Positions 43,485 to 62,634 of a stretch of 64,000 nt of DNA are shown in pieces; position 1 is the stretch's first letter; each line of letters starts with the position of its first letter. The stretch lies in sequence record MK327931.1; one strand, given 5' to 3'. Position numbers and translations under genes: made by a program. The notes below the pieces were generated by a model. The model made no database searches and was not told the origin of the DNA. It saw nothing but the letters and a program-made list of their open reading frames with translations. Source of the stretch: Escherichia phage vB_EcoM_G17.

Positions 43485-43694
43485 TTAATCCTTCGTTACG
43501 CTAACGATTATCTGTGTATCCCCGTAGTCCTGCCATACTTCCACGCCATCGGTCGCCCTGGTTAGTCGTGCTGTCATCTGCTTAATGGTCTTAGGCTTTA
43601 GTGGAACCTGTTGCAGTACTGTACGCATAGCATCATTGACGTTATCATGTACGCCTGCAATAGTACCTAGAACGCTGTATACTGTATAGAACAT
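43485..43694 (-). CDS. hypothetical protein
   Basis: ORF track; AGGAGGG SD; preceded by hairpin AGGCCGC/GCGGCCT at 43721-43740. Confidence 0.6.
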   Translation of the reverse strand: MFYTVYSVLGTIAGVHDNVNDAMRTVLQQVPLKPKTIKQMTARLTRATDGVEVWQDYGDTQIIVSVTKD

Positions 43695-43762
43695 ATGTAT
43701 GCCCTCCTGATATAGTTAAGGCCGCTACAAGGCGGCCTATGATGTTTGGTGATGTGTAACGC

Positions 43763-44164
43763 TTACAGTCCTAAGATAGTGCGTGCTTCGTTACGTTCCG
43801 TACACAGCTGCATGATGTGAGCAAGTAAGTCCTTGCTAATGTATCCGGTGTTCATAGCTTCACGAATAGATACATCATACGCACCGAACCCCGTGCGAAC
43901 GATACGCACATCATTCAGGTTAGTATTATAGATACCGCCGAGATCAACGGCTTCGAATACTACATCAACAGAATATTCATTGTTGCCATCGTGGAAGTTT
44001 TCCAGTGCAATAGTATTGGATACCGCCCAACGTTTGCAGTTTCCAATGATGCGGCACTGTTCCGGTTGGATAGTACCATTACTTACAGCGTACTCCAGTG
44101 CATCTTTACCAAAAGTCCGAGCCAGTACTAAAACGTCAGCGAAGGAATTGATTGAGAAGGTCAT
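43763..44164 (-). CDS. hypothetical protein
   Basis: ORF track 43763..44197 trimmed: first ATG lies inside leader hairpin; second ATG has AAGGAG SD. Confidence 0.6.
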   Translation of the reverse strand: MTFSINSFADVLVLARTFGKDALEYAVSNGTIQPEQCRIIGNCKRWAVSNTIALENFHDGNNEYSVDVVFEAVDLGGIYNTNLNDVRIVRTGFGAYDVSIREAMNTGYISKDLLAHIMQLCTERNEARTILGL

Positions 44165-44183
44165 GATAAAACTCCTTAATTTA

Positions 44184-44246
44184 GGAGGGAGAACCATTTC
44201 CCCCTCTCTATGTAAAACATTATACTTGATTCTAAGTACTATGCAA
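44184..44246 (-). promoter_or_regulatory. sigma70-like promoter + leader hairpin cassette (PeSL-like)
   Basis: -35 TTGCAT 44241-44246, 16-bp spacer, -10 TATAAT 44219-44224, GC hairpin about 44184-44208. Confidence 0.6.
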
Positions 44247-44253
44247 GTACTTT

Positions 44254-44586
44254 TTACATTTTAATACCTGGATTCAGGTAGCGGTGAGATCCATATTCTG
44301 GATCGGTTTCGGTCCAGTACTGTAAATCGATAGTACCTTTCGCGTTAATCTTGTCTACCAGCTTATTCATCTTAGTGTATACTACGTCAGCATCGATGCG
44401 TTTAAAGCCAGTAGCTTTAGTGAAGTAGTAGTGATTTGCTTCACTATCATTAAGGATATACCGAGCACCGTTTGCAGTCTGTGCGATAATGATTGAGTAT
44501 TCTACTTCCCGATCCAGACCGTCGATGAATACAGATGAAACATTGGTACGGATGAAAGCTTTAACGATAGCGATTGAAGTACTCAT
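44254..44586 (-). CDS. hypothetical protein
   Basis: ORF track; AGGAGA SD. Confidence 0.65.
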   Translation of the reverse strand: MSTSIAIVKAFIRTNVSSVFIDGLDREVEYSIIIAQTANGARYILNDSEANHYYFTKATGFKRIDADVVYTKMNKLVDKINAKGTIDLQYWTETDPEYGSHRYLNPGIKM

Positions 44587-44606
44587 TTTGAATCTCCTAA
44601 CTTTGT

Positions 44607-44668
44607 GGGCCGTCGCACCATTGCCGCCCTACGAGATACATTATTGCAGTACTGATATACTTTGTCAA
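44607..44668 (-). promoter_or_regulatory. sigma70-like promoter + leader hairpin cassette
   Basis: -35 TTGACA 44663-44668, weak -10 (AATAAT/CAATAA), GC-rich hairpin about 44607-44629. Confidence 0.5.
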
Positions 44669-44737
44669 TACTTTTTTTATTAATAGTTTTCACCCCACCA
44701 GCAGATAGTTACTCACCGTTATTAACTATATATTTTA

Positions 44738-44830
44738 GATACACTCCTGCACCCAGTGGGCTAGTTTTTGTCTATGCGTATATAATAGCAAAGGGACTGA
44801 CCGGAGTCAATCCCTTTTTTTATTCTTTTT
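44738..44830. repeat. repeated intergenic element copy A with bidirectional terminator
   Basis: Motif GATACACTCCTGCACCCAGTGGGCTAG 44738-44764, then hairpin GGGACTGACCGGAGTCAATCCC 44793-44814 and T-run; recurs near 47485-47580, 50758-50840, 54042-54130. Confidence 0.6.
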
Positions 44831-44832
44831 TG

Positions 44833-45033
44833 TTAGATGATTCTCCAATCTTCTACGATCATGGTAAGATAACGGACCATCGATTCAAGTGATTCGAATT
44901 CCCGATAGTCTGCCGCTCCACCAGCGGTACAAGTACAGCCGATTAAACCATTTTGTAATTCCTTAATCTGTACATCGATAAGGTTGGCTTTAGCTTCTTT
45001 CAGTACTTCAACCAGGGCGATAGCGATAGACAT
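44833..45033 (-). CDS. hypothetical protein
   Basis: ORF track; GGAG SD; own promoter cassette. Confidence 0.55.
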   Translation of the reverse strand: MSIAIALVEVLKEAKANLIDVQIKELQNGLIGCTCTAGGAADYREFESLESMVRYLTMIVEDWRII

Positions 45034-45056
45034 AATGTTTTACTCCAAACTATTGA

Positions 45057-45116
45057 CGGGAGAACTATTCCCCCGCTCTATGTAAAACATTATACATTAC
45101 TGGTTAGTACTGTCAA
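45057..45116 (-). promoter_or_regulatory. sigma70-like promoter + leader hairpin cassette
   Basis: -35 TTGACA 45111-45116, 16-bp spacer, -10 TATAAT 45089-45094, hairpin CGGGGGAATAGTTCTCCCG 45057-45075. Confidence 0.6.
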
Positions 45117-45122
45117 ATAGTT

Positions 45123-45380
45123 TTATGAAATATCTTCGATGTAGTCGGCCCATTTCATTTTTTCAGTACTGTCAATGGCTACCGGATTATTTGGATCAAA
45201 CCATTCACCATTCCCGCAATACATACCCACGGCAACGGTTTTATATCCATCCTGTGCAGTACTCCACGACATAGCACGATAGATATGGCCTTTAACTGGT
45301 TGCAATACTGGTAATGTTTTATGGTCTTCTACGTAGGCCATAGCTTGAGGATTTACCCGATATTGTGTGAACTGTTCCAT
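45123..45380 (-). CDS. hypothetical protein
   Basis: ORF track. Confidence 0.65.
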   Translation of the reverse strand: MEQFTQYRVNPQAMAYVEDHKTLPVLQPVKGHIYRAMSWSTAQDGYKTVAVGMYCGNGEWFDPNNPVAIDSTEKMKWADYIEDIS

Positions 45381-45408
45381 TATGTTTCCCCTTGTAGTTA
45401 GTAAAGTT

Positions 45409-45437
45409 ATTACATCAGTACTATCAAGCTATGTCAA
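45409..45437 (-). promoter_or_regulatory. sigma70-like promoter (no leader hairpin)
   Basis: -35 TTGACA 45432-45437, 17-bp spacer, -10 TGTAAT 45409-45414. Confidence 0.5.
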
Positions 45438-45456
45438 TAGTACTGAAATAAAACTT

Positions 45457-45681
45457 TTAGATTAGATTATTGATGCCGTTGATGGTAGACTCGCTTTCTT
45501 CTTTCTCCCATTGGCGGTAGTACTTCCATGCTTCATGATATGTGGCGATTAGTTCATCTTTTTGATCCTGAGTACATGCCAGTACTGAATCACGGTGAGC
45601 GGTTTTATAGATAGAATCGAATGATTTCTTCTCTTCTGCCAGGTTAGCTACTTCCCGCATCAGTTCATCAAAGTTAGCCAT
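45457..45681 (-). CDS. hypothetical protein
   Basis: ORF track; AAGGAG SD. Confidence 0.65.
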   Translation of the reverse strand: MANFDELMREVANLAEEKKSFDSIYKTAHRDSVLACTQDQKDELIATYHEAWKYYRQWEKEESESTINGINNLI

Positions 45682-45699
45682 TTTATTACTCCTTTTAGT

Positions 45700-45756
45700 G
45701 GGGGAGGATATCTCCCCCTATGCAAAACATTATACTTTGTTTTAGTTATTATGCAA
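45700..45756 (-). promoter_or_regulatory. sigma70-like promoter + leader hairpin cassette
   Basis: -35 TTGCAT 45751-45756 (overlaps stop of 45749..46012), 16-bp spacer, -10 TATAAT 45729-45734, hairpin GGGGGAG..CTCCCCC 45700-45718. Confidence 0.6.
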
Positions 45757-46012
45757 GTACTTTTTTCATATAAAGATTATATTCTACACCGCCGTAACCT
45801 TCTACGATGATATGTTTTGCGTTATCACGTTTGCACATAGTGAAACCGTTGTTGATGTGTTCTGCATTTTCCAGGGCGACATCACCGATAGCGGCACATA
45901 CGGCACTAATAACAGTATTCCGCAAAGTACTGGTATCATTAGCGGTCATAGTAGTTTGCAGTACTACGTTGTCGTATACGTGTGCATTGATAGTGATTTC
46001 GATAGTGTTCAT
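45749..46012 (-). CDS. hypothetical protein
   Basis: ORF track; GGAG SD. Confidence 0.65.
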   Translation of the reverse strand: MNTIEITINAHVYDNVVLQTTMTANDTSTLRNTVISAVCAAIGDVALENAEHINNGFTMCKRDNAKHIIVEGYGGVEYNLYMKKVLA

Positions 46013-46030
46013 GGTGTATCTCCTGGACTG

Positions 46031-46091
46031 GCGGGAGAACTATTCCCCCGCTCTATGTAAAACATTATACGTTAATCTAACTACAATGCAA
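46031..46091 (-). promoter_or_regulatory. sigma70-like promoter + leader hairpin cassette
   Basis: -35 TTGCAT 46086-46091, 16-bp spacer, -10 TATAAT 46064-46069, hairpin 46031-46051. Confidence 0.6.
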
Positions 46092-46098
46092 GTACTTT

Positions 46099-46290
46099 TT
46101 AAATTTTATTTCCGATATAGTCCGGTCTATTCTTTTCGGTCATACGCTTTGCTAATGTTTGCATATGGCTTATTGCGTTTAATGTGTCTTCCTCCAGGGA
46201 TGAATCAACATAATCAGGATCATTCTTCACCTTGCAATGATTATGATAGCGTAGTACTGCCAGTACTTTTTTAACTTCTTCTACTGTCAT
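46099..46290 (-). CDS. hypothetical protein
   Basis: ORF track; ATGA-coupled to 46287..46559. Confidence 0.6.
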   Translation of the reverse strand: MTVEEVKKVLAVLRYHNHCKVKNDPDYVDSSLEEDTLNAISHMQTLAKRMTEKNRPDYIGNKI

Positions 46291-46559
46291 AATAAGTACC
46301 CCACTTCGTTAGCTTTCAGGTTAGTATCAATCATCAGTGGATTTTTGTAGTTCACAAAACGATTAGTTTTCTCGATAGCGAATCCCATATAATCCAGCTT
46401 ACTAACAGTACATTCATTCTTAAAAACTTCTTTCGCTGCATCGATGGCTGATTGCATGGATAACCGACCATCTAAATTAATGTTTCCAAATGATCCACCA
46501 GCAGAAGTAGGATTACCGTTCATATCTTTAATGATCATAGTAGCGGAGTAGCTGGACAT
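46287..46559 (-). CDS. hypothetical protein
   Basis: ORF track; AAGGA SD. Confidence 0.65.
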   Translation of the reverse strand: MSSYSATMIIKDMNGNPTSAGGSFGNINLDGRLSMQSAIDAAKEVFKNECTVSKLDYMGFAIEKTNRFVNYKNPLMIDTNLKANEVGYLL

Positions 46560-46581
46560 AATTTTGTTTCCTTTTAGTATC

Positions 46582-46640
46582 GGGGAGAACTATTCTCCCC
46601 TTGATGTAAACTATTATACAGTACTGATATACTTTGTCAA
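46582..46640 (-). promoter_or_regulatory. sigma70-like promoter + leader hairpin cassette
   Basis: -35 TTGACA 46635-46640, 16-bp spacer containing CAGTACTG, -10 TATAAT 46613-46618, hairpin GGGGAGAA-TAG-TTCTCCCC 46582-46600. Confidence 0.65.
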
Positions 46641-46646
46641 ATACTT

Positions 46647-47054
46647 TTATTCGCCCATATAGATTAAGTTATCATCGCCTACATAGGGATCGCAAACGTT
46701 GATTTCTTCGCAGTACTTCGTGAATACATCGCCATAGTGACCTAAACCACGATCCCAAAAACCAGTTCCGTGACCTTCGCGGGTAAGGAACAGATCATGA
46801 CCAGCTTGCTCATAACCGTAATCAATAAACATACCGCGAACTACTTCCAGATCATTACCGTGTTTCTCAATGAAGCGAGAACATGCAATCACCGCCGCTT
46901 GACGTGCTTCATCAGATAACTCATAATCTTCCAGGTAATCGCCGTTATCATTATGTACAGTACTGAATTGCATAGCTTCAATGTAAGCTACAACCATTGC
47001 AGCATGATTTTTATCGTTAGTGATGTTCCGAGCGAGATTAGTAGTAGTAGACAT
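46647..47054 (-). CDS. hypothetical protein
   Basis: ORF track; AAGGAA SD. Confidence 0.7.
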   Translation of the reverse strand: MSTTTNLARNITNDKNHAAMVVAYIEAMQFSTVHNDNGDYLEDYELSDEARQAAVIACSRFIEKHGNDLEVVRGMFIDYGYEQAGHDLFLTREGHGTGFWDRGLGHYGDVFTKYCEEINVCDPYVGDDNLIYMGE

Positions 47055-47075
47055 GATTTTATTCCTTATTGTATT

Positions 47076-47134
47076 GGGGAGAACTATTCTCCCCTTGATG
47101 TAAACTATTATACAGTACTGATATACTTTGTCAA
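47076..47134 (-). promoter_or_regulatory. sigma70-like promoter + leader hairpin cassette
   Basis: -35 TTGACA 47129-47134, 16-bp spacer, -10 TATAAT 47107-47112, hairpin 47076-47094; stop of upstream gene 4 bp from -35. Confidence 0.65.
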
Positions 47135-47137
47135 TAC

Positions 47138-54586: not shown

Positions 54587-54589
54587 GTA

Positions 54590-54736: not shown

Positions 54737-54755
54737 TTCATATTCCTTAATTAGT

Positions 54756-54815
54756 GGGGAGAATCATTTCTCCCCTTCATGTAAAACATTATACAGTACT
54801 GAAAACTAATTGCAA
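54756..54815 (-). promoter_or_regulatory. sigma70-like promoter + leader hairpin cassette
   Basis: -35 TTGCAA 54810-54815, 16-bp spacer, -10 TATAAT 54788-54793, hairpin GGGGAGAA..TTCTCCCC 54756-54775. Confidence 0.6.
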
Positions 54816-55015
54816 GTACTATTTGAAAGTAAATGCTCATACGCTGCATTAACTACGTTTTCAATAACCGACTGTACAGAAAGATCCCCCACGTCCCGGC
54901 TATAGTAGAAATCGCTTACAGTGGTGTCATCGTATGCAAATACTTTACCAGGTACGGCATCAATCACATACATATTAACCTTTAAGATGTCGATCTTATC
55001 CTGTACAGTAAGCAT
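54806..55015 (-). CDS. hypothetical protein
   Basis: ORF track; 3-prime end overlaps -35 of downstream cassette. Confidence 0.55.
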   Translation of the reverse strand: MLTVQDKIDILKVNMYVIDAVPGKVFAYDDTTVSDFYYSRDVGDLSVQSVIENVVNAAYEHLLSNSTCN

Positions 55016-55020
55016 ATTAA

Positions 55021-55293
55021 TTAACCTTTTAAGTACTGGCTTAAGTAGTCTTGTTGATCTTCGGTGATTGCAGCCATCTTCCCTAGTACTGGATTGATGA
55101 TATAATCCCCTGTAACGTCCTGTAACGCATTCTCAGGCGGTTTAACGGCTGGGGTAGCCATAGCCATTGCCTGGACTTGTTCGACGCTGTAACGCTCATA
55201 AAGGCGGCATTCTTCCGGTGTTAACATAGCATCAGTACGCTTCATCGGTTTAATGATGCTTTCGATCTCATTCAGTACTTGATTAACGTTCAT
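55021..55293 (-). CDS. hypothetical protein
   Basis: ORF track. Confidence 0.65.
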   Translation of the reverse strand: MNVNQVLNEIESIIKPMKRTDAMLTPEECRLYERYSVEQVQAMAMATPAVKPPENALQDVTGDYIINPVLGKMAAITEDQQDYLSQYLKG

Positions 55294-55344
55294 GGTATAA
55301 TCCCCAATATAAGCGGCCTGAATCGACCGCTAACGATGTTTTGA

Positions 55345-55614
55345 TTAATAGGTGTATGGTTGACGTTCAAACAATGATTGCACGTTGTACGCCCCACTAA
55401 TGGGCTTTGCTGGTAAATCAATTTTATATTGTTCACGCTTAAAGATAATAAAACGGCAATTGTTTTTTACATCAAAATTGATTGAACGTTCCAGGAGTTT
55501 TCCATCGTGTACAAATACAAGATAACCGCTTGCTACTTGTTTTGTAGTACTGGTTGCAACCATAGACCGACGAACATGCGTACCTGCATCGATTAAAGTA
55601 CTGATATTTTTCAT
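55345..55614 (-). CDS. hypothetical protein
   Basis: ORF track; AGAGGA SD. Confidence 0.65.
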   Translation of the reverse strand: MKNISTLIDAGTHVRRSMVATSTTKQVASGYLVFVHDGKLLERSINFDVKNNCRFIIFKREQYKIDLPAKPISGAYNVQSLFERQPYTY

Positions 55615-55694
55615 TATACGATCCTCTTAAGTTAATTTAATTTCTTTCCCCTATGCAGACACTATATCAAAGTATCTGCATAAAGTAAAGCTAA

Positions 55695-56018
55695 TTAAAG
55701 ATCTTTTTTGCGTTTAACATTCTGTACAGTACAATGCAACGGGATATTAAGATCATTGCACACACGAGTAAGGGAGGTTTCATCAGTATTAAGCCCGTCT
55801 ACTGATTCCTTTAAGAGAGATAACGCCGTTTGTTGATATGCATCTTCATAGCCATAAGTAAATGATTCAACCGCCAGATCATTCAAACCGTTATCCAGTT
55901 CAACGCTTACATGACAAGAATGATAAGTATTGCCATATGAATCAGTCCAACGTTTACCGTCAACATTGATTGCACGGATTGCAGCCAGGGAAACGGTGTT
56001 AATGATAGTTTTAGCCAT
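55695..56018 (-). CDS. hypothetical protein (paralog of 49577..49900)
   Basis: ORF track; AAGGAA SD; shared RWTDxxGNTYHSC motif. Confidence 0.7.
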   Translation of the reverse strand: MAKTIINTVSLAAIRAINVDGKRWTDSYGNTYHSCHVSVELDNGLNDLAVESFTYGYEDAYQQTALSLLKESVDGLNTDETSLTRVCNDLNIPLHCTVQNVKRKKDL

Positions 56019-56059
56019 TTTTGTATTCCTTAAATTAATATGTTGTCTTGATAAAATCT

Positions 56060-56088
56060 ATTATGCCAGTACTATCAAACTATGTCAA
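56060..56088 (-). promoter_or_regulatory. sigma70-like promoter (no GC hairpin)
   Basis: -35 TTGACA 56083-56088, 17-bp spacer, -10 CATAAT 56060-56065. Confidence 0.5.
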
Positions 56089-56107
56089 TAGTACTGTGAT
56101 AATATTT

Positions 56108-56251
56108 TTACTTACTTTTTGCTTTCTTTGCTGCTTCCACCTGGTCGGCCCATTCTTTACCCCATACTTGTAAATTATAATGGTACTGGCAAAGAGCAAC
56201 GCCCCGCTTTAAACCCGTAATAGATTTCTGACCACATTGACAAGTTTTCAT
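56108..56251 (-). CDS. hypothetical small Cys-containing protein (47 aa)
   Basis: Below ORF-track cutoff; MKTCQCGQ...CQYH; ATG with AAGGAA SD. Confidence 0.45.
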   Translation of the reverse strand: MKTCQCGQKSITGLKRGVALCQYHYNLQVWGKEWADQVEAAKKAKSK

Positions 56252-56268
56252 TTTAGTTTCCTTGTAGT

Positions 56269-56328
56269 GGGGAGAACCATTTCTCCCCTTGATGTAATGT
56301 ATTATACTTTATTCGATTTACTTTGCAA
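56269..56328 (-). promoter_or_regulatory. sigma70-like promoter + leader hairpin cassette
   Basis: -35 TTGCAA 56323-56328, 16-bp spacer, -10 TATAAT 56301-56306, hairpin GGGGAGAA..TTCTCCCC 56269-56288. Confidence 0.65.
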
Positions 56329-56337
56329 GTACTTTTT

Positions 56338-56565
56338 TTAATTTAATTCATCCAGGCAAAGGATACGCTCAACGCCCAAATCAGTTAAACTAATCGACGG
56401 CACTTGATAGGTTTCAATGTATGCTACACTTGCCCACTGACCGAACTCATTAACGGCCCAGGTATTCATTGCATTTTGCAATTCCGCACCTTCCTTGTTG
56501 GTAATTACAGCAACAGTAGAAGAATTACCAGTAGTACCAGATACGCGAGTGATTACGATAGCCAT
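56338..56565 (-). CDS. hypothetical protein
   Basis: ORF track. Confidence 0.65.
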   Translation of the reverse strand: MAIVITRVSGTTGNSSTVAVITNKEGAELQNAMNTWAVNEFGQWASVAYIETYQVPSISLTDLGVERILCLDELN

Positions 56566-56597
56566 TTTTTAATTCCTATTCAGTAGTTGATGTATGT

Positions 56598-56626
56598 ATT
56601 ATGTCAGTACTTAAAACTATTGTCAA
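56598..56626 (-). promoter_or_regulatory. sigma70-like promoter (no GC hairpin)
   Basis: -35 TTGACA 56621-56626, 17-bp spacer, -10 CATAAT 56598-56603. Confidence 0.5.
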
Positions 56627-56634
56627 ACTATTTT

Positions 56635-56787
56635 TTAAAGTTTATCAATGATTGATGCCGTTTCATTGATAGTCTTGCCGTGTTTTGCACACGCGATAAC
56701 TGCTTTAAATTCCTTTGATGACCAATCTTTCTTGCTGCATACTGACATTACTTGTAAAGTAAAACAATCCAGTTCATAAGTATTCAT
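56635..56787 (-). CDS. hypothetical small protein (50 aa)
   Basis: Below ORF-track cutoff; ATG with GAGGA SD. Confidence 0.45.
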   Translation of the reverse strand: MNTYELDCFTLQVMSVCSKKDWSSKEFKAVIACAKHGKTINETASIIDKL

Positions 56788-56832
56788 CTTTAAATCCTCA
56801 GTTAGTTAAGGTGTCTCGCCTTGATGTAATTA

Positions 56833-56860
56833 ATTATACGCTAATCTCTTAATCGTGCAA
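56833..56860 (-). promoter_or_regulatory. sigma70-like promoter (short leader hairpin)
   Basis: -35 TTGCAC 56855-56860, 16-bp spacer, -10 TATAAT 56833-56838. Confidence 0.5.
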
Positions 56861-57001
56861 GTACTTTTTATTACTTTTTGCAAAATACTTTAAACGCTCT
56901 CAATCGCATTCTAACGACCTTAACTCCACCAGCTAGGGCGATGTATCAGATAATCAGTTTAATGCGTTAGGCGGTGCTAGTGGACTGGAATACTATAGAC
57001 A

Positions 57002-57030
57002 CAAAAAAGCCCACTGTTTAAGGTGGGCTA
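57002..57030 (-). terminator. rho-independent terminator
   Basis: Hairpin AGCCCAC-CTTAAACA-GTGGGCT 57008-57029 followed on minus strand by U6; after stop of 57051..57533. Confidence 0.7.
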
Positions 57031-57050
57031 GTGATTCAGTACTTTAATTT

Positions 57051-57533
57051 TTATGCTTCAACTTTGCGATGAGCTTCGATCCATTCCTCGCGAGTCATAC
57101 CGCTTTCTTTGATAGCGTCCAGTACTACCGCAATGCAGTTACCGCGTACAGGAATCAAATGTTCTTCCCCGTTATCAAGTACTACCGCTACACGTTCCTG
57201 AATCCATTTTTTAGGCTTAGATTCCGGCTTATCTTCACCATACTTAACCGCCAGGGCTTTATGTGCCATTTCCACAACCACTTCCAGATCCAATCCAGAC
57301 ACTGCCGCCTGAATACTTTCAATTGTTGCTTGTAGTTCTGCTTCACGGGCTTTTTTCTGTTCTTCCAGTTCTGCTACCTTTTTGGCTTGCAGTTCTTTCG
57401 CAGTACTGTACGCAATGTTAAAATTGTTGCGTACCGCTTTCATGGTATCGCTATCCAGTTCAGCCAGGATTTCTGCCGCTACGTTAGTTTCATTTGCTAC
57501 CAGTGCTTTGATGAATGATTTTACATTAGCCAT
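57051..57533 (-). CDS. hypothetical protein (coiled-coil rich)
   Basis: ORF-track start is TTG; trimmed to ATG (MANVKSF) with GAGGA SD; Lys/Glu/Ala-rich helical repeats. Confidence 0.65.
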   Translation of the reverse strand: MANVKSFIKALVANETNVAAEILAELDSDTMKAVRNNFNIAYSTAKELQAKKVAELEEQKKAREAELQATIESIQAAVSGLDLEVVVEMAHKALAVKYGEDKPESKPKKWIQERVAVVLDNGEEHLIPVRGNCIAVVLDAIKESGMTREEWIEAHRKVEA

Positions 57534-57656
57534 TTTATAAATCCTCAATTAAAGTTTAGTTTACGTTAGATAGTGTATCAAAGTTTTCTCGACGTGTCCA
57601 GTTTTTCGTTCGACTTACTGGCGGTCTACTTAGTGCTCCCCGTCTTGATGTAATAC
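57534..57656 (-). other. conserved structured leader element, copy 3 (5-prime UTR of 57051..57533)
   Basis: About 120-nt leader beginning ACATCAAGACGGGGAGC, homologous to 50596-50680 and 60584-60672. Confidence 0.4.
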
Positions 57657-57684
57657 ATTCTACGCTTTTCTGTGGTAATGTCAA
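57657..57684 (-). promoter_or_regulatory. sigma70-like promoter
   Basis: -35 TTGACA 57679-57684, 16-bp spacer, -10 TAGAAT 57657-57662. Confidence 0.55.
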
Positions 57685-57737
57685 CTACTTTTTTAAAACT
57701 ATTTTTAAAGTATCTCAGTACTACGATACTACAAAAA

Positions 57738-57766
57738 CAAAAAAGCCCACTGTTTAAGGTGGGCTA
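57738..57766 (-). terminator. rho-independent terminator (duplicate of 57002-57030)
   Basis: Identical hairpin AGCCCACTGTTTAAGGTGGGCT 57744-57765 with A/U runs; after stop of 57783..58082. Confidence 0.7.
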
Positions 57767-57782
57767 GTGATTCAGTACTAGA

Positions 57783-58082
57783 TTATAAACAGTTAATTAC
57801 TCCGGTGTGCGTTACTTTCTCAGTATCCATAACCGTGACCGATCCACGCTTAGTACTGGCATCATAATAAATTGTGGTGCTACCGTTTTCGTCTTCTTCA
57901 TGGAACGGGCCGTTTTTAAATGCTTCCGGCTGGATCTCTAAATCCTTTAATACAATCTCGCCAGTTCTTTCATCGGTCATTGCAACAGTGCACTGAATGA
58001 ATTTTTCATTACTTACATCTAATGACGCATTAACAGCGAAAGAGGAAACAGATAAAGCCAGGGCGATGATTGCAATTTTCAT
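57783..58082 (-). CDS. hypothetical secreted or lipoprotein-like protein
   Basis: N-terminal signal-peptide-like MKIAIIALALSVSSFAVNAS; AAGGA SD. Confidence 0.65.
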   Translation of the reverse strand: MKIAIIALALSVSSFAVNASLDVSNEKFIQCTVAMTDERTGEIVLKDLEIQPEAFKNGPFHEEDENGSTTIYYDASTKRGSVTVMDTEKVTHTGVINCL

Positions 58083-58102
58083 TTGATTATCCTTAGTTAC
58101 CA

Positions 58103-58161
58103 GGGGGAACCGCTCCCCCTTGCTATGTAAAATATTATACAGTACTAAAAACTAATTGCAA
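58103..58161 (-). promoter_or_regulatory. sigma70-like promoter + leader hairpin cassette
   Basis: -35 TTGCAA 58156-58161, 16-bp spacer, -10 TATAAT 58134-58139, hairpin GGGGGAACCGCTCCCCC 58103-58119. Confidence 0.6.
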
Positions 58162-58166
58162 GTACT

Positions 58167-58403
58167 TTATGATTTTTTATAAAACATTTCGGCAGTGATA
58201 TTTTTACCCGTTGGCTGTACTTTATCCAGAATTTTTTGATGCCCTGGCCGTCCAAATGAATATGATCCGTAAACCGTAAACCAGTAGTTACCCTCAGTGT
58301 TTACATGTACAGCACAATAGGGAACGCCCCGCGATTCATCACTAGTAAAGTGTGCTACCGTTCCCGTTACATTCGAAGTCGTTGATTTGATTTGTTCAAG
58401 CAT
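58167..58403 (-). CDS. hypothetical protein
   Basis: ORF track; AAGGAA SD. Confidence 0.65.
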   Translation of the reverse strand: MLEQIKSTTSNVTGTVAHFTSDESRGVPYCAVHVNTEGNYWFTVYGSYSFGRPGHQKILDKVQPTGKNITAEMFYKKS

Positions 58404-58423
58404 TTTCTTATTCCTTAGTTACC

Positions 58424-58477
58424 AGGGGAACCGCTCCCCTATGCAAAACATTATACGCGTTTAAAAACTAATAGCAA
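58424..58477 (-). promoter_or_regulatory. sigma70-like promoter + leader hairpin cassette
   Basis: -35 TTGCTA 58472-58477, 16-bp spacer, -10 TATAAT 58450-58455, hairpin AGGGGAACCGCTCCCCT 58424-58440. Confidence 0.55.
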
Positions 58478-58510
58478 GTATTTTAATAAAAAGTATTTGG
58501 AAAATAATTG

Positions 58511-58539
58511 TTGACAAGTGCATCCAGTACTGGCATAAT
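58511..58539 (+). promoter_or_regulatory. plus-strand sigma70-like promoter
   Basis: -35 TTGACA 58511-58516, 17-bp spacer with AGTACT, -10 CATAAT 58534-58539; opposite orientation to flanking genes. Confidence 0.5.
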
Positions 58540-58545
58540 TACTAC

Positions 58546-58653
58546 ATCAAGACGAAACAGTCACTAACCCACCGGGTGCATAGATCCGTCTATTAAATGA
58601 TTCAGTACTGAAAAAGTAACGGGGAGTTATTATCTCCCCGCGTTGTTATTTTG
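58546..58653 (+). ncRNA. candidate small RNA (promoter-to-terminator unit, about 105 nt)
   Basis: Starts about 7 nt after -10, contains motif AACCCACCGGGTGCATAG, ends at hairpin CGGGGAG-TTATTAT-CTCCCCG 58620-58640 plus U-rich tail; no ORF. Confidence 0.4.
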
Positions 58654-58867
58654 TAAGGTATAAACAGAAGTCACCTTTATTTGCTACGCCGCCAGTGTAA
58701 CGCGATGAATAGTTAGAAATATCTTGTACTTCTGCTATTACCAGTGTATCATCATTCATTTCGTCGCAGAAGCAAACGGCTGGATCTTTTACGCCGATAT
58801 TGTCGGCATGTTCCCGCATAGATTTAACCAGTGCTTCCAGTTGAGAAAGAGTAGTGATATTAGCCAT
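58646..58867 (-). CDS. hypothetical protein
   Basis: ORF track 58646..58897 trimmed to ATG (MANITTLSQ) with GAGGA SD. Confidence 0.6.
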   Translation of the reverse strand: MANITTLSQLEALVKSMREHADNIGVKDPAVCFCDEMNDDTLVIAEVQDISNYSSRYTGGVANKGDFCLYLTK

Positions 58868-58885
58868 TGTATTTTCCTCATTACC

Positions 58886-58945
58886 AGGGAGAACCATTTC
58901 TCCCCTCTATGTAAACTATTATACAGTACTGAAAACTAATTGCAA
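58886..58945 (-). promoter_or_regulatory. sigma70-like promoter + leader hairpin cassette
   Basis: -35 TTGCAA 58940-58945, 16-bp spacer, -10 TATAAT 58918-58923, hairpin about 58886-58906. Confidence 0.6.
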
Positions 58946-58953
58946 GTACTTTT

Positions 58954-59157
58954 TTAATTTAATTGCTTTAAAACATACTCAAAGACACCACGCACATCAT
59001 TGATCATCGCCTGGCGGTTAGCAGGTAACGCATCAGGATCGCCACTATCCCAGGCATTGATAAAACTCCCCAAATCATGATAGATTTTATTCTGTAAGCC
59101 GATTAACTGTAATTCTTTTTCTTCAAGCTCTTTGATGCGGTCGATTAAATCACTCAT
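58954..59157 (-). CDS. hypothetical protein
   Basis: ORF track 58954..59193 trimmed to ATG (MSDLIDRIK) with TGAGGATTATCTA SD. Confidence 0.55.
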   Translation of the reverse strand: MSDLIDRIKELEEKELQLIGLQNKIYHDLGSFINAWDSGDPDALPANRQAMINDVRGVFEYVLKQLN

Positions 59158-59174
59158 TAGATAATCCTCAGTAC

Positions 59175-59459
59175 TTAACTGTAAGATCCGCAACGGTCGC
59201 AGTAGTGCCCGTCCTCGTCATCGTCAACGAATTGACCGACGAAATGATCTACTTTCGCTTTCAGGTTATTATAATCGTTTTCTACTTCATTTAAACGCTT
59301 CTGGTAGTATTCCAGTGCTTTAAGATATGCCGCATCAGCAGTTTTCTCCTGCATAGCTAAATTCATGCCACGCGTTTCATCGTACAGCCAAAAACCATCG
59401 GTGCACTGGCTAATAGATAATGACTTGCTTAGTACTGTATAGTTAATTACTTTACCCAT
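59175..59459 (-). CDS. hypothetical protein
   Basis: ORF track; same SD sequence as downstream gene; C-terminal CDRCG. Confidence 0.65.
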   Translation of the reverse strand: MGKVINYTVLSKSLSISQCTDGFWLYDETRGMNLAMQEKTADAAYLKALEYYQKRLNEVENDYNNLKAKVDHFVGQFVDDDEDGHYCDRCGSYS

Positions 59460-59476
59460 TAGATAATCCTCAGTAA

Positions 59477-59537
59477 AGGCGGGAACTATTCCCCGCCTCG
59501 ATATAAAGTATTATACGTTAATCTAACTACAATGCAA
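59477..59537 (-). promoter_or_regulatory. sigma70-like promoter + leader hairpin cassette
   Basis: -35 TTGCAT 59532-59537, 16-bp spacer, -10 TATAAT 59510-59515, hairpin AGGCGGGAACTATTCCCCGCCT 59477-59498. Confidence 0.6.
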
Positions 59538-59551
59538 GTACTTTTTAAATT

Positions 59552-59818
59552 TTATAATCCTTTTACTGCATCAGGTGCGACTACTCCATCAATGTATTGA
59601 ACATCGTTTTCAACTTCACGGGCGGCATCATTCAGCAGATCAAAATTAAATTCCATTTCTTCCAGATCATCGAAATCAGGCTCATAACCATTAATTGTTG
59701 AATAAGTCCAAGTACCTTTTTCATAAGTTACGACACTTACATCAGGGAAGAAATCTTGCACATGATCCATCGCATCCCGAACCAATTGATGTGCAGTTGT
59801 GATATTTAAAGTTTTCAT
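59552..59818 (-). CDS. hypothetical protein
   Basis: ORF track. Confidence 0.65.
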   Translation of the reverse strand: MKTLNITTAHQLVRDAMDHVQDFFPDVSVVTYEKGTWTYSTINGYEPDFDDLEEMEFNFDLLNDAAREVENDVQYIDGVVAPDAVKGL

Positions 59819-59839
59819 TTTGTTGCCCTTTTAGTGTGA

Positions 59840-59899
59840 GCGGGGAACCACTCCCCGCCTCGATGTAAAGTATTATACGCTTTTAAACTTAGTTTGCAA
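59840..59899 (-). promoter_or_regulatory. sigma70-like promoter + leader hairpin cassette
   Basis: -35 TTGCAA 59894-59899, 16-bp spacer, -10 TATAAT 59872-59877, hairpin GCGGGGAACCACTCCCCGC 59840-59858. Confidence 0.6.
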
Positions 59900-59911
59900 G
59901 TACTTTTTAAA

Positions 59912-60523
59912 TTAATATGCGATTGATTCTACTACGTCATCAATAACATTGAATTGATATTCGTTACCCTCAATCAGTGCCGTAATGTTTTCAGTAGTGA
60001 ATTGATCCTCATATGCATTCTCTAAATCACGGTACAACTTGCGGGATAATTCACGAATAGTTTCAGTGAGTAGTTCCTCAAGCTCATTAACTAACGTTTC
60101 TTGTTTTGCGGTTAAATCAGTGTAAGCCGATTCAATGTACCCGCTTACAGTATTCTCATGCGAGTAGTGGGAGTGAGAACGCTTTACACTCATCGCCAAA
60201 TCATCTTCATTCAGCAGGTGACGGATTGAGCGATACTTAGTTAATGCTCTTACCTTGCGTAAAAACTTCACTGCGTCAACGTGGTCAGTACTGATTGATG
60301 CACCGTCACCCTGGGACCAAAAACCACTGAATTGTATTTCAGCTTCATTAATGCCATATTCCGGTAGTACTGTTTCTTTATAGTATTCAATTTCACTTTC
60401 AGAAAAATAATTGTCGTTTGAGTTTTTTTCACGTTCCCGAACCAGTTCGATAGCTGACGTTTTTTGTTCTGCGTTCAATTCAGAAAAATCCATAACGAAA
60501 GTAGTAGTAGTGATAGTTTTCAT
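59912..60523 (-). CDS. hypothetical protein
   Basis: ORF track; 203 aa; contains SGFWSQGDGAS; GAGGG SD. Confidence 0.7.
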   Translation of the reverse strand: MKTITTTTFVMDFSELNAEQKTSAIELVREREKNSNDNYFSESEIEYYKETVLPEYGINEAEIQFSGFWSQGDGASISTDHVDAVKFLRKVRALTKYRSIRHLLNEDDLAMSVKRSHSHYSHENTVSGYIESAYTDLTAKQETLVNELEELLTETIRELSRKLYRDLENAYEDQFTTENITALIEGNEYQFNVIDDVVESIAY

Positions 60524-60555
60524 TTTGTAACCCTCATTCAGTAGTTGATGTAAGT

Positions 60556-60583
60556 ATTATACGCTTTTAAAAACATTTGTCAA
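60556..60583 (-). promoter_or_regulatory. sigma70-like promoter
   Basis: -35 TTGACA 60578-60583, 16-bp spacer, -10 TATAAT 60556-60561. Confidence 0.55.
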
Positions 60584-60672
60584 ACTATTTTATCAGGGGA
60601 GTTTTTCGTGTGCCTTACTCCTGGGCTACTTAACGGGAAGTTACTTATTTCGTTCCCCGTCCTGATGTAAAA
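60584..60672 (-). other. conserved structured leader element, copy 2
   Basis: Homologous to 50596-50680, differing at a handful of positions; no ORF. Confidence 0.4.
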
Positions 60673-60673
60673 C

Positions 60674-60701
60674 ATTATACGCCTTTAAACATAGTTTGCA
60701 A
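60674..60701 (-). promoter_or_regulatory. sigma70-like promoter
   Basis: -35 TTGCAA 60696-60701, 16-bp spacer, -10 TATAAT 60674-60679. Confidence 0.5.
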
Positions 60702-60746
60702 GTACTTTTTAAAAATAGTTTTCAGTACTGAATATTTAAAAAAGTA

Positions 60747-60775
60747 TTGACAGCATTATCAAGTACTGGCATAAT
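60747..60775 (+). promoter_or_regulatory. plus-strand sigma70-like promoter
   Basis: -35 TTGACA 60747-60752, 17-bp spacer, -10 CATAAT 60770-60775; transcript would begin with AGCTAACCCACCGGGTGCAC motif. Confidence 0.45.
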
Positions 60776-60890
60776 ATACCCCATGACAACAGCTAACCCA
60801 CCGGGTGCACAATTGTAACTATACTAAACTACTTTTTCTATAGATACACTCCCGCACCCTATGGGCTACGGCTTATCTGCCAATGAATAC

Positions 60891-60919
60891 ATTATGCCAG
60901 TACTGACAAAATAAGTCAA
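60891..60919 (-). promoter_or_regulatory. minus-strand promoter convergent with plus promoter at 60747-60775
   Basis: -35 TTGACT 60914-60919, 17-bp spacer, -10 CATAAT 60891-60896. Confidence 0.4.
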
Positions 60920-60949
60920 TACCGGCAATTGTAAAGATTTGTAAACTGC

Positions 60950-61180
60950 TTATACTGCAATCGCGTCCAGGCTATAATAATAATAAGTGCCGTATTGGTG
61001 TACTTTATTACCTTTTATTTCAGTACTGAATGAATCCGAACGGTTTGCATATGATGTTAATTTAAAGTACTTTGATTTGCTGATACGTTGCCATACACCG
61101 CAGATCCGCTGTAAGTAAGTAGTTTTATTCGTGGTAGTATCTTTTACAGTTTTAACTTCAGTCATATACATATTAGTCAT
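60950..61180 (-). CDS. hypothetical protein
   Basis: ORF track; GGAG SD. Confidence 0.6.
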   Translation of the reverse strand: MTNMYMTEVKTVKDTTTNKTTYLQRICGVWQRISKSKYFKLTSYANRSDSFSTEIKGNKVHQYGTYYYYSLDAIAV

Positions 61181-61201
61181 TTTTATTACTCCAGGTTATA
61201 G

Positions 61202-61260
61202 GCGGGAAGAGTTCCCGCTCTCGATGTAAAACATTATACGCCATTAAACATAGTTTGCAA
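61202..61260 (-). promoter_or_regulatory. sigma70-like promoter + leader hairpin cassette
   Basis: -35 TTGCAA 61255-61260, 16-bp spacer, -10 TATAAT 61233-61238, hairpin GCGGGAA-GAG-TTCCCGC 61202-61218. Confidence 0.6.
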
Positions 61261-61267
61261 GTACTTT

Positions 61268-61534
61268 TTATTCAAGTACTGCAATCTTTTTAGTACGGTA
61301 CACGGTCACGCGGTTGCCCTTTCGGTCGAGCTTTATTTCTACCACTCGACGCGATACACTATCAGGACTTTTCAACGCCGCTAACCAGTACTGTAATGAT
61401 CTGGCGGTACTACGCTTTATAATGGCCCAACGTTTACCACGTTCCGATTGTACGCCCATATCTTTAAACGTTGCCCCGTCCTGGCGTGCGGCGATCCGAG
61501 CTTGTTCACGCGTCGCAAAATACTTAATATTCAT
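61268..61534 (-). CDS. hypothetical protein (paralog of 49086..49490)
   Basis: ORF track 61268..61570 trimmed to ATG (MNIKYFATREQAR) with AAGGG SD. Confidence 0.6.
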   Translation of the reverse strand: MNIKYFATREQARIAARQDGATFKDMGVQSERGKRWAIIKRSTARSLQYWLAALKSPDSVSRRVVEIKLDRKGNRVTVYRTKKIAVLE

Positions 61535-61575
61535 GCTGTTGCCCTTATCGTTGGTGTATGAATAAAACACTATTA

Positions 61576-61606
61576 TAAAGTACTATCGCAAAAAATGATA
61601 GTACTT
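61576..61606. promoter_or_regulatory. 11-bp inverted repeat AAAGTACTATC / GATAGTACTTT (candidate operator or attenuator)
   Basis: Perfect 11-bp arms separated by 9 bp, each containing AGTACT; sits where a -35 box would be expected upstream of 61268..61534. Confidence 0.35.
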
Positions 61607-61619
61607 TAAATAAATTCTA

Positions 61620-61859
61620 TTACATTCCAACCATTGCAGCACGGATCGCAGTAGTGCTATATTTGAATCCGTCCGGCGTTTTATCTTGTCCAGTCTGTTC
61701 TAAAAATAACATCATATGACGGGCCGCATCATTACGATTAGTATTGGCGGCAATAAAGTCCTGGGCCAACCGGTATAATGATTCATCGTTATTAATCCAA
61801 AGGCTTACATTCCAATGAGTTTTGTTTTTGTGACCTAAGAACATTTTTGATTTAGCCAT
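61620..61859 (-). CDS. hypothetical protein
   Basis: ORF track 61620..61898 trimmed to ATG (MAKSKMF) with AAGAGGA SD. Confidence 0.6.
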   Translation of the reverse strand: MAKSKMFLGHKNKTHWNVSLWINNDESLYRLAQDFIAANTNRNDAARHMMLFLEQTGQDKTPDGFKYSTTAIRAAMVGM

Positions 61860-61880
61860 TTTTTTAATCCTCTTATATAG

Positions 61881-61938
61881 TGGGGAACTATTCCCCACCT
61901 GATGTAAAACATTATACGCTTTTAAACATAGTTTGCAA
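61881..61938 (-). promoter_or_regulatory. sigma70-like promoter + leader hairpin cassette
   Basis: -35 TTGCAA 61933-61938, 16-bp spacer, -10 TATAAT 61911-61916, hairpin TGGGGAA-CTA-TTCCCCA 61881-61897. Confidence 0.6.
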
Positions 61939-61952
61939 GTACTTTATTAAAC

Positions 61953-62315
61953 TTATTCGTAAATTTTGCCACTGTCAGCCCATACCAGGAAACGAGGCAT
62001 ATTATCCCATGCATCTTGTTTTAAATTTAAACCGTGTAATACTTCTGTACTTTCCATTCCTGGTACTGGTTTACTATACACCGCGAAATTTTCGCCCATA
62101 TACTGATAAACCATCGTCAAATCACTGGCGATCATCTTATGGATCATCGCATCAAGCATCACGGTAGCGGCGTATTGTTCACGCTTAAGCGGCAACATTG
62201 TAATAAGTTCCCGATAAGCTGAAATGTGAATTTTTACCGTTTCAGCCGGAAGACCTTTCATCTCTTCACGGAAGTTGACCAGGTTAGAAATAATTTTATT
62301 GATTTGGGTCGCCAT
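61953..62315 (-). CDS. hypothetical protein
   Basis: ORF track 61953..62372 trimmed to ATG (MATQINKII). Confidence 0.6.
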   Translation of the reverse strand: MATQINKIISNLVNFREEMKGLPAETVKIHISAYRELITMLPLKREQYAATVMLDAMIHKMIASDLTMVYQYMGENFAVYSKPVPGMESTEVLHGLNLKQDAWDNMPRFLVWADSGKIYE

Positions 62316-62339
62316 CGTATTAATCTCTTTTAAAGTGTA

Positions 62340-62398
62340 GCGGGAAGTGTTCCCGCTCTCGATGTAAAACATTATACGCCTTTAAACATAGTTTGCAA
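62340..62398 (-). promoter_or_regulatory. sigma70-like promoter + leader hairpin cassette (first of the leftward small-gene cluster)
   Basis: -35 TTGCAA 62393-62398, 16-bp spacer, -10 TATAAT 62371-62376, hairpin GCGGGAA-GTG-TTCCCGC 62340-62357. Confidence 0.6.
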
Positions 62399-62634
62399 GT
62401 ACTTTCTACATGTACTTTTAAAATAGTTTTCTTTCTATATAGGGGAACTATCATTCAGTACTATTATTCAGTACTGAATCAACCAAATCACTACTACACC
62501 CCATAAAACGGCCTCAGACGCATTCTAACGCATTAATACACCTAAGCTATACATTTGCACCATTCCAATCATTCCAGGGCTTTACGGGCCGTTTAAACGC
62601 GTTAAATTATTTTCAATTATTTTGTTTTTAGCTA

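Follow-up and report, generated by a model that had tools for sequence, protein, structure and literature searches.

Promoter and leader-hairpin cassettes repeated through the terminal repeat of an Asteriusvirus jumbo phage

Why should most of the small genes in a long phage gene array each be preceded by a copy of the same promoter and hairpin? The question is raised by a 64,000-nucleotide stretch of Escherichia phage vB_EcoM_G17 (MK327931.1), hereafter the window, in which an original prediction placed more than 30 cassettes at positions 43485-62400, each composed of a sigma70-type promoter, a GC-rich hairpin in the 5' leader, a Shine-Dalgarno sequence (SD) and an ATG. The present analysis confirms that this promoter and leader-hairpin module is a real and robust feature of the array.

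A core pattern, TTGMMW-N16-TATAAT-NNTTTACAT with up to 2 mismatches, was compared with 100 shuffles of the sequence. It has 28 matches, all on the minus strand and all within 44210-63635, against 0.09 expected from the shuffles, and 0/100 shuffles reach 28; window positions 1-44209 hold no match. A looser scan together with inspection gives 38 cassette-type promoters between 44224 and 63613. Perfect 12/12 matches to sigma70 number 11, all on the gene strand and none on the plus strand. The module was accordingly described correctly, and it lies on the minus (gene) strand. The 38 promoters fall into 24 canonical cassettes, 6 with variant or expanded leaders and 8 that lack a hairpin; "more than 30" holds for promoters and is slightly generous for hairpins, of which there are 24 on a strict count and 30 with the variants.

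The canonical order is a -35 of TTGCAA or TTGACA, a 16-bp spacer (17 in one), TATAAT, the start region NNTTTACAT(C/A)(A/G)(A/G), a G-run/C-run hairpin, an A-rich linker, SD and ATG. Upstream of the -35, the cassette alignment shows an A-rich tract, AAAAAGTAC; with this UP-like tract included, the expression cassette is about 105 bp long, and most array genes carry their own copy. The 24 canonical hairpins have stems of 7-10 bp, loops of 3-5 nt and folding free energies (dG) of -10.3 to -16.7 kcal/mol. Their stems begin 13-19 nt past the -10 hexamer in all 24 cases and 1-6 nt (mostly 3-6) past the predicted +1, and the ATG follows the -10 by 46-57 nt in 23 cassettes and by 40 nt in c52163. The alignment resolves four sub-families with conserved spacers, and because these spacers are kept, the cassettes are homologous repeats and not only as convergent signals. 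An extended -10 was considered for the canonical cassettes and rejected, the TG in CTGTATAAT being one position out of register; an in-register TG is restricted to the 17-bp-spacer class.

Upstream genes end close to the next promoter, if less uniformly than had been predicted. Stop codons were said to fall within 0-8 bp of the next -35; the gap is -8 to 8 bp in a majority, 16/27, of the script-measured junctions and 9-98 bp in the other 11 (9-28 bp in 10, 98 bp in one). Overlap of a stop codon with the -35, also claimed, has one clear case, at 45751, two other negative values depending on short, possibly spurious open reading frames (ORFs). The canonical cassettes are as follows; matches to coliphage W70, which is discussed below, are marked.

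62316-62398, minus strand: canonical cassette c62376; -35 62398-62393, -10 62376-62371, hairpin 62357-62339, ATG 62315
61860-61938, minus strand: canonical cassette c61916; hairpin 61899-61879, ATG 61859
61181-61260, minus strand: canonical cassette c61238; hairpin 61218-61202, ATG 61180
59819-59899, minus strand: canonical cassette c59877; hairpin 59859-59839, ATG 59818
59460-59537, minus strand: canonical cassette c59515; hairpin 59499-59476, ATG 59459; hairpin, SD and gene also in W70
58868-58945, minus strand: canonical cassette c58923; hairpin 58905-58886, ATG 58867
58404-58477, minus strand: canonical cassette c58455, -35 TTGCTA; hairpin 58441-58423, ATG 58403
58083-58161, minus strand: canonical cassette c58139; hairpin 58120-58102, ATG 58082
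56252-56328, minus strand: canonical cassette c56306; hairpin 56288-56269, ATG 56251; near-identical copy in W70
54737-54815, minus strand: canonical cassette c54793; hairpin 54775-54756, ATG 54736
54506-54586, minus strand: canonical cassette c54564; hairpin 54546-54524, ATG 54505
53919-53997, minus strand: canonical cassette c53975; hairpin 53956-53938, ATG 53918
53482-53561, minus strand: canonical cassette c53539; hairpin 53521-53502, ATG 53481
52118-52186, minus strand: cassette c52163, 17-bp spacer, -10 TATAGT, 40-nt leader; hairpin 52147-52129, ATG 52117
51489-51565, minus strand: canonical cassette c51543; hairpin 51525-51506, ATG 51488
50171-50255, minus strand: canonical cassette c50233, -35 TTGATA; hairpin 50213-50194, ATG 50170
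49901-49984, minus strand: canonical cassette c49962; hairpin 49942-49924, ATG 49900
47360-47439, minus strand: canonical cassette c47417; hairpin 47398-47379, ATG 47359
47055-47134, minus strand: canonical cassette c47112; hairpin 47094-47076, ATG 47054
46560-46640, minus strand: canonical cassette c46618, near-identical to c47112; hairpin 46600-46582, ATG 46559
46013-46091, minus strand: canonical cassette c46069; hairpin 46051-46031, ATG 46012
45682-45756, minus strand: canonical cassette c45734; hairpin 45718-45700, ATG 45681; stop of the upstream gene overlaps the -35
45034-45116, minus strand: canonical cassette c45094; hairpin 45076-45056, ATG 45033
44165-44246, minus strand: canonical cassette c44224; hairpin 44206-44185, ATG 44164

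The six promoters with variant or expanded leaders are those at 63613, 60679, 57662, 56838, 50689 and 44645. In 2 of the 6 an insertion of about 60 nt splits the stem, and a second promoter comes after it. The eight hairpin-less promoters form a class of their own, mostly TTGACA-17-CATAAT with leaders of 28-44 nt.

63575-63635, minus strand: outermost promoter c63613, TTGACA-16-TATAAT-GTTCTACAT; no clear ORF after it
60524-60701, minus strand: long-leader variant; promoter c60679, stem with loop expansion of about 60 nt, hairpin-less promoter c60561, ATG 60523
57534-57684, minus strand: variant c57662, -10 TAGAAT, 123-nt leader, ATG 57533
56788-56860, minus strand: variant c56838, -35 TTGCAC, degenerate weak stem, ATG 56787
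50535-50711, minus strand: long-leader variant; promoter c50689, expanded stem, second promoter c50573, ATG 50534
44587-44668, minus strand: variant c44645, TTGACA-17-AATAAT, different GC stem, ATG 44586
56566-56626, minus strand: hairpin-less c56603, TTGACA-17-CATAAT with TG motif, ATG 56565
56019-56088, minus strand: hairpin-less c56065, ATG 56018
53176-53240, minus strand: hairpin-less c53217, ATG 53175
52897-52968, minus strand: hairpin-less c52946, ATG 52896
49491-49554, minus strand: hairpin-less c49531, TTGACA-17-TATAAT, ATG 49490
45381-45437, minus strand: hairpin-less c45414, TTGACA-17-TGTAAT, ATG 45380

The two long-leader variants belong to a repeat of about 190 bp, at 50550-50740 and 60538-60729, that comprises a promoter, a stem with a loop expansion of about 60 nt and a second promoter. 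The segment 57560-57690 begins like this double-promoter repeat, which also occurs in phages W70 (3860-4040) and muut (3570-3716) at 83-93% identity.

Whether the hairpin is a selected RNA element can be judged from its pairing. Cognate arm pairs fold at a mean of -12.4 kcal/mol, as compared to -9.5 for non-cognate pairs, and 0/5000 permutations are as good. Two MAFFT cassette alignments placed the stems in inconsistent register, and pairs were therefore counted with a covariance model built from 7 equal-geometry seeds. Searching the window together with six Asteriusvirus loci, the model retrieves 141 copies, every one on the gene strand; the covariation analysis used the 69 distinct sequences among them, from 7 genomes. 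In these, 98.9% of cells are standard pairs, double-sided changes occur at 5/8 stem pairs, and 50 cells are compensatory versus 8.7 in shuffles (0/500). RNAalifold predicts the same stem. G·U pairs fill 48 cells versus 6 for all other non-standard combinations, and since G·U pairs would be A·C mismatches on the opposite strand, the gene strand is indicated as the folding strand. The comparison thus supports a hairpin that probably folds in gene-strand RNA and is maintained by selection.

The position of the stem points the same way as the original prediction, which favored a leader structure over a terminator. RNA polymerase carrying sigma70 initiates 6-9 nt after the -10. Because the stems begin 13-19 nt after it, past the plausible starts, they should lie within the cassette's own transcript. 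With the absence of a T-run and the covariation of the arms, this upholds the leader assignment, the function of the structure being a matter of proposal. Two specific functions were rejected: a lambda nut/boxB-type protein-binding hairpin, because the loops (TAG, ATGG, CAC, GCGG, ATATC) are not conserved, and an RNase III processing site as in the T7 early region, because stems of 7-10 bp are too short. An Rfam scan of 43000-64000 (E<=1) returned no relevant family, only one sub-threshold chance match.

The stems do not resemble the terminators of the same region. None is followed by a T-run, and no cassette hairpin is called terminator-like on the gene strand; the sequence after the stems is A-rich (for example ACTAAT, AATACA, TGGTAA). 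The same scan finds four hairpin-plus-T-run terminators there.

49063-49045, minus strand: intrinsic terminator, GGCGGGATCAGTTCCCGCC then TTTTTTAT, in contrast to the cassette hairpins
57029-57008, minus strand: intrinsic terminator, AGCCCACCTTAAACAGTGGGCT then a T-run
57765-57744, minus strand: second copy of the preceding terminator
58641-58619, minus strand: hairpin-plus-T-run terminator

Cassette stems share with Rho-independent terminators a GC-rich hairpin in intergenic space and differ from them in the missing T-run and in lying downstream of their own promoter, a position in which an efficient terminator would cut the cassette's own mRNA short at about 30 nt. Judged by its sequence, the cassette hairpin is not a classical Rho-independent terminator.

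The array coincides with a defined part of the genome. Window positions 43485-62400 are 100% identical to phage Sharanji (OR545507.1) and 91-97% identical, piecewise, to other Asteriusvirus jumbo phages; the matching records are classified as Asteriusvirus, and the carrier of the cassettes is hence not a T4-type phage (Straboviridae). The Sharanji genome paper reports 350 kb of sequence, with 20,668 bp for the direct terminal repeat (DTR), and makes no mention of promoters or hairpins. In vB_Ec-M-J the annotated DTR (record positions 1-21525) spans the entire homologous array, its inner boundary corresponding to window position ~43337 and its outer end to a point ~75 bp past the window end. 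Because 43337 plus 20,668 bp gives 64,004, the array is essentially the ~20.7-kb DTR.

43337-64000, minus strand: the array as a whole, approximately the DTR, with about 53 small minus-strand ORFs and 38 cassette promoters

All DTR genes and cassettes are on the minus strand, with transcription directed from the physical genome end inward. The 53 ORFs are small and mostly without a Pfam match. Ten of the larger array proteins were scanned against Pfam: the product of 52193-52450 (minus) is a DksA/TraR C4 zinc-finger protein (E 1e-11), that of 47581-48165 (minus) has a weak, sub-threshold similarity to protein kinases, and the remainder of the ten have no match, results consistent with a host-takeover gene set. 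Just inside the DTR boundary, at 41779-43265 (minus), small genes follow one another so closely that stop and start codons overlap, and none has a cassette, so that gene organization shifts sharply at the boundary. In PA5oct, a distant jumbo-phage relative, RNA-seq found the DTR genes highly transcribed early, from TTGAC/TATAATA promoters (PMC7318152), and the PA5oct DTR also holds non-coding RNAs. For phage CBB, RpoD-like promoters with UP elements have been predicted in the early region and the terminal repeat (PMC5259590).

Gene content of the array varies among relatives, and the cassettes mark where it does so. In chained BLAST alignments of the window with six Asteriusvirus loci, 24/36 unique ends of homology blocks lie in cassette footprints, which occupy 21% of the DNA (p=6e-9). 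In at least 7 events the aligned blocks overlap by 67-125 bp, the length of one cassette, as exchange between two cassette copies would leave them. Three relatives thus lack 396 bp at 46647-47042 (gene 46647-47054), between the near-identical c46618 and c47112, and the overlap is 99 bp; one relative lacks 155 bp between 54595 and 54751 (gene 54590-54736; overlap 74 bp), and one lacks 162 bp between 50001 and 50164 (overlap 108 bp). Extra DNA of 183-236 bp, with duplicated cassettes on both sides, is found in relatives at 50573, 56065 and 61916, and in two relatives an 890-bp module between cassettes (58952-59843) is replaced by one of 191 bp. Homology is broken in all six relatives by ~410-420 bp of extra DNA at c52163 (52160-52180) and by ~319 bp at 52450-52461; these breaks look like cassette-mediated deletions in Sharanji, or replacements. 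Taken together, the alignments support repeated cassettes as the homology at which genes would be deleted, inserted, replaced and reordered. Near the 52160-52461 breaks, an acetyltransferase gene is annotated in several relatives. A different repeat has the same signature: hairpin-less promoter copies, TTGACA-17-TACTAT, stand at 48440-48500 and 48700-48775 on either side of gene 48498-48716, and in phage SP27 ~190 bp between them are missing with an 85-bp overlap.

The cassette extends beyond the jumbo phages. A 91-nt cassette query matches Rak2-like jumbo phages and also coliphages of ~140-150 kb. The matches in W70 (Vequintavirinae) and muut (Justusliebigvirus) fall within small-gene arrays whose 80-95-bp gaps have the same layout of promoter, start region, G/C hairpin, SD and ATG. 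Some of these gaps are almost identical to window cassettes; others have diverged promoters and different yet still paired stems, GGCGGTGG/CCACCGCC and GCGGG/CCCGC. Whole gene-plus-cassette modules are common to the window, W70 and muut at 68-93% identity in a different order, and the shared blocks begin inside cassettes. Examples are muut 3576-4085 and window 50690-50182, which includes the gene of a long-leader variant (93%), and W70 3993-4533, 5201-5458 and 5476-5798, which match window 56634-56112 (82.5%), 61874-61618 (83%) and 59497-59175 (80%), respectively. A scan of IMG/VR with the exact pattern TATAATNNTTTACATNRRGGGG gave only 5 stretches, two of them 121Q, and the covariance model found no arrays in the rest.

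These matches suggest an accessory gene pool common to very different coliphages. A wider reading, on which we are inclined to doubt slightly more than to believe, is that the cassette serves as a portable expression unit for Asteriusvirus, rV5-like Vequintavirinae and phi92-like Stephanstirmvirinae, its ~100 bp of homology allowing co-infecting phages to trade single early or anti-host genes across families and its hairpin both capping one mRNA at the 5' end and guarding the 3' end of the one before. The literature on Asteriusvirus, Rak2-like, rV5-like and phi92-like phages, subscription journals lying outside the search, yielded promoter predictions only and no leader hairpin.

The original prediction likened the cassettes to the promoter-early stem-loops (PeSLs) of T4-type phages. 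PeSLs are known from RB49/phi1, PST/T4 and nt-1/KVP40 (Arbiol et al. 2010, PMC2839356; Comeau et al. 2014, PMC4122927). Their definition combines a strong sigma70-like promoter, AT-rich DNA upstream of it and a G/C stem-loop, and they occupy the gaps between ORFans of hyperplastic regions, where they go with indels. In a lacZ assay the stem-loop behaves as a terminator, and mini-circles between neighboring cassettes have been reported (PMC2839356). The resemblance holds for composition and indel behavior. In both, the sigma70 promoter is close to consensus and preceded by an AT-rich tract (here 28 matches versus 0.09, 11 perfect), the G-run/C-run stem-loop has no U-tract (here 24 canonical stems, dG -10 to -17 kcal/mol), SD and ATG form the 3' end, and the neighbors are small ORFans where the genome varies most; in both, too, cassettes delimit the insertions, deletions and replacements that distinguish close relatives (here 24/36 breakpoints). 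The resemblance fails for the position of the stem. RB49 intergenic regions, as read from their sequence, have it in the -35/-10 spacer, TTGACAGGGGG...CCCCTATAAT, or have the -10 inside the loop, and in PST and nt-1 the stem-loop is upstream of the promoter; being inside or upstream of the promoter, a PeSL stem is seen only by transcripts arriving from upstream. In the window the stem is fixed in the cassette's own transcript, at about +4 to +30. The spacer here is moreover 16 bp, not 17, the carrier is an Asteriusvirus jumbo phage whose terminal repeat the array fills, and near-identical cassettes are common to two other phage subfamilies. The cassette is best described as a PeSL-type variant with promoter and leader hairpin, in a jumbo-phage terminal repeat.

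Elements of the classical type also occur. Four hairpins with 12-bp stems, AAAGGGATTGACTCCGGTCAGTCCCTTT, on the minus strand at 44817-44782, 47569-47534, 50838-50803 and 54126-54091, have a -35 TTGACT in the 5' arm and TG-n-TATTAT 17 bp later, with a T-run after the hairpin on the plus strand. By this arrangement they are putative composite terminator/promoters of classical PeSL type, the stem lying over the -35, alongside the leader-hairpin cassettes.

How might the leader hairpin and the repeated cassette serve the phage together? We consider it probable that the DTR is a one-directional array of ~50 small, mostly ORFan early genes in which the cassettes provide independent expression, a selected leader hairpin that acts as 5' stabilizer and 3' barrier, and homology for gene turnover. 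Host sigma70 RNA polymerase would start at each cassette, as the promoter sequences strongly support, and each gene would then be transcribed alone once the DNA enters the cell. The hairpin would fold in the resulting RNA; because it begins ~3-6 nt from the 5' end, it may act as a cap-like stabilizer of the cassette's own mRNA, and it may also shield the ribosome-binding site from upstream sequence. When the upstream gene is read through, the hairpin could give that RNA a 3' exonuclease barrier or act as a mild attenuator. Cassette homology would also be the site of gene deletion, insertion, replacement and reordering, both within Asteriusvirus and with unrelated coliphage families, as the genome comparisons support. 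The ompA 5' untranslated region and the T7 gene 10 leader, GGGAGACCACAACGGUUUCCC, are known examples of 5'-terminal stabilizing stem-loops. Like the cassette leader they have a short GC-rich hairpin near the 5' end, followed by an A-rich ribosome-binding region that lacks structure, and their sequence flavor is very similar to that of GGGGAAACGGUUUCCCC at 53955-53939; their hairpins begin no more than ~2 nt from the 5' end, as compared to the 3-6 unpaired nt predicted here.

Several points weigh against this explanation. Emory, Bouvet and Belasco are said to have put in 1992 a single-stranded tail of 3-6 nt at the upper limit compatible with protection by a 5' stem-loop, and both the +1 positions and what becomes of read-through RNA are predicted. 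The cassette copies share ancestry, so that cell counts overstate the number of independent events; the alignment is fitted to the model and thereby biased toward structure; G-runs and C-runs still pair at 84-88% when slid by 1-3 columns; and the G·U excess could come in part from a C-to-T bias on the non-template strand. Because 8 promoters have no hairpin at all, it is not obligatory. Enrichment of breakpoints in cassettes becomes modest under an intergenic-only null (15/17 versus 60% expected, p=0.012). Attenuation, finally, has a precedent in RB49, where a G/C stem-loop with no U-tract lowered downstream lacZ as strongly as rrnB T1 (PMC2839356).

That precedent, with a stem of the same G-run/C-run type, is the strongest argument for the classical PeSL explanation, in which the stem-loop terminates or attenuates upstream transcription, insulating genes and preventing polymerase pile-up along the array. 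The occurrence of hairpins in every intergenic space fits it as well, and an attenuator acting equally on all polymerases might level expression along the array. We nevertheless think it unlikely: true hairpin-plus-T-run terminators are present in the same region and no cassette stem has a T-run, and an efficient terminator downstream of its own promoter would cut short its own mRNA, a conflict that does not arise in RB49 because the stem there is inside the promoter. The inverted repeat at about +10 to +30 might instead act as DNA, either as the operator of a dimeric phage repressor, a position just past the start site being reportedly typical of roadblock operators, or as a single-stranded DNA recombination hairpin like integron attC. 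Arrays of small ORFs with imperfect inverted repeats, and the PeSL mini-circles, do recall integron cassettes, and the strand asymmetry also fits folding of one DNA strand. The arms, however, change together within one genome (GAGGGG/CCCCTC, GTGGGG/CCCCAC, GCGGG/CCCGC), which a single protein would not need, and the distance between them is not constant, ranging over 3-5 nt and extending to ~60 nt in two copies; on these grounds a DNA site of either kind seems quite improbable. Unlike attC, moreover, the cassette stems appear as perfect short stems with no bulges, and the overlaps at indels cover the whole cassette, as would fit general homologous recombination and not a fixed crossover point. 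Least probable of all, in our estimate, is a functionless hairpin, a mere part of a repeat spread by duplication and gene conversion in which the promoter alone matters. The sub-families with conserved spacers do show common descent, and the hairpin-less promoters agree with such a passenger, but it would account neither for the compensatory changes and near-total pairing over 69 distinct copies nor for the persistence of the architecture in the diverged W70 and muut promoters with different stem sequences.

Pre-early or host-takeover gene blocks in long terminal repeats include the T5 first-step-transfer region and the SPO1 host-takeover module. These and the PA5oct block (PMC7318152) resemble the present array in having many small genes of unknown function in a long DTR, early transcription by host polymerase and strong promoters; no conserved leader hairpin or cassette-bounded shuffling is described for them in the accessible literature, nor did the searchable literature hold a description of either outside T4-type phages. 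Compared with T4-type PeSLs, what appears to be new is the hairpin in the cassette's own leader, the setting in a jumbo-phage terminal repeat, and the apparent circulation of cassette and cargo among unrelated coliphages. Morons, described by Hendrix and colleagues and discussed in PMC2839356, are likewise lone genes under a promoter of their own that one phage has and a related phage lacks; they are usually single insertions with promoter and terminator in temperate phages, whereas here the array is continuous, one cassette is repeated and the units lack a terminator. Most jumbo-phage genes are small ORFans of unclear origin, many of them probably involved in host takeover or anti-defence. 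A cassette that would express each gene alone and also serve as a crossover point offers a concrete, testable mechanism for the turnover of such accessory genes. As compact, strong and self-contained expression units, the cassettes could also be useful in phage engineering.

Other repeats are present in the window. The palindrome AGTACT, often as CAGTACTG, occurs 251 times in the whole window versus 17 expected. No other 6-bp palindrome comes near it in number; it stands within and between genes, with ~6-7 copies per kb in the terminal repeat, and two stretches, 27931-35646 and 38092-43463, are free of it. It is built into cassettes, as AAAAAGTACTTGCAA beside the -35 and CAGTACTGTATAAT beside the -10. 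A literature search gave no explanation for the excess; 50 kb of RB49 contain no AGTACT, and W70 and muut contain few copies.

A second repeat, CCCAYNGGGTGCR, has nine copies versus 0.1 expected, on the minus strand at 44748, 47495, 50769, 54052 and 60853 and on the plus strand at 58568, 60797, 62691 and 62907. A sigma70-like promoter of its own, TTGACT/A-17-TATTAT/CATAAT with TG, stands ~25-35 nt upstream of each copy, and there is one convergent pair at 60734-60935. The segment 60783-60900 (plus) folds better than shuffles (z -4.35); the other candidate small RNAs and long leaders fold no better than shuffles (z -1.6 to +0.1). The CCCAYNGGGTGCR copies may be small transcription units or protein-binding sites. 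The non-coding segment 62400-64000 adjoins the predicted physical genome end, has plus-strand promoters and is crowded with short repeats (GCCGTCTAG-like, CAGTACTG and GGGGAAACTATCCCC); it may have a role in packaging or end recognition.

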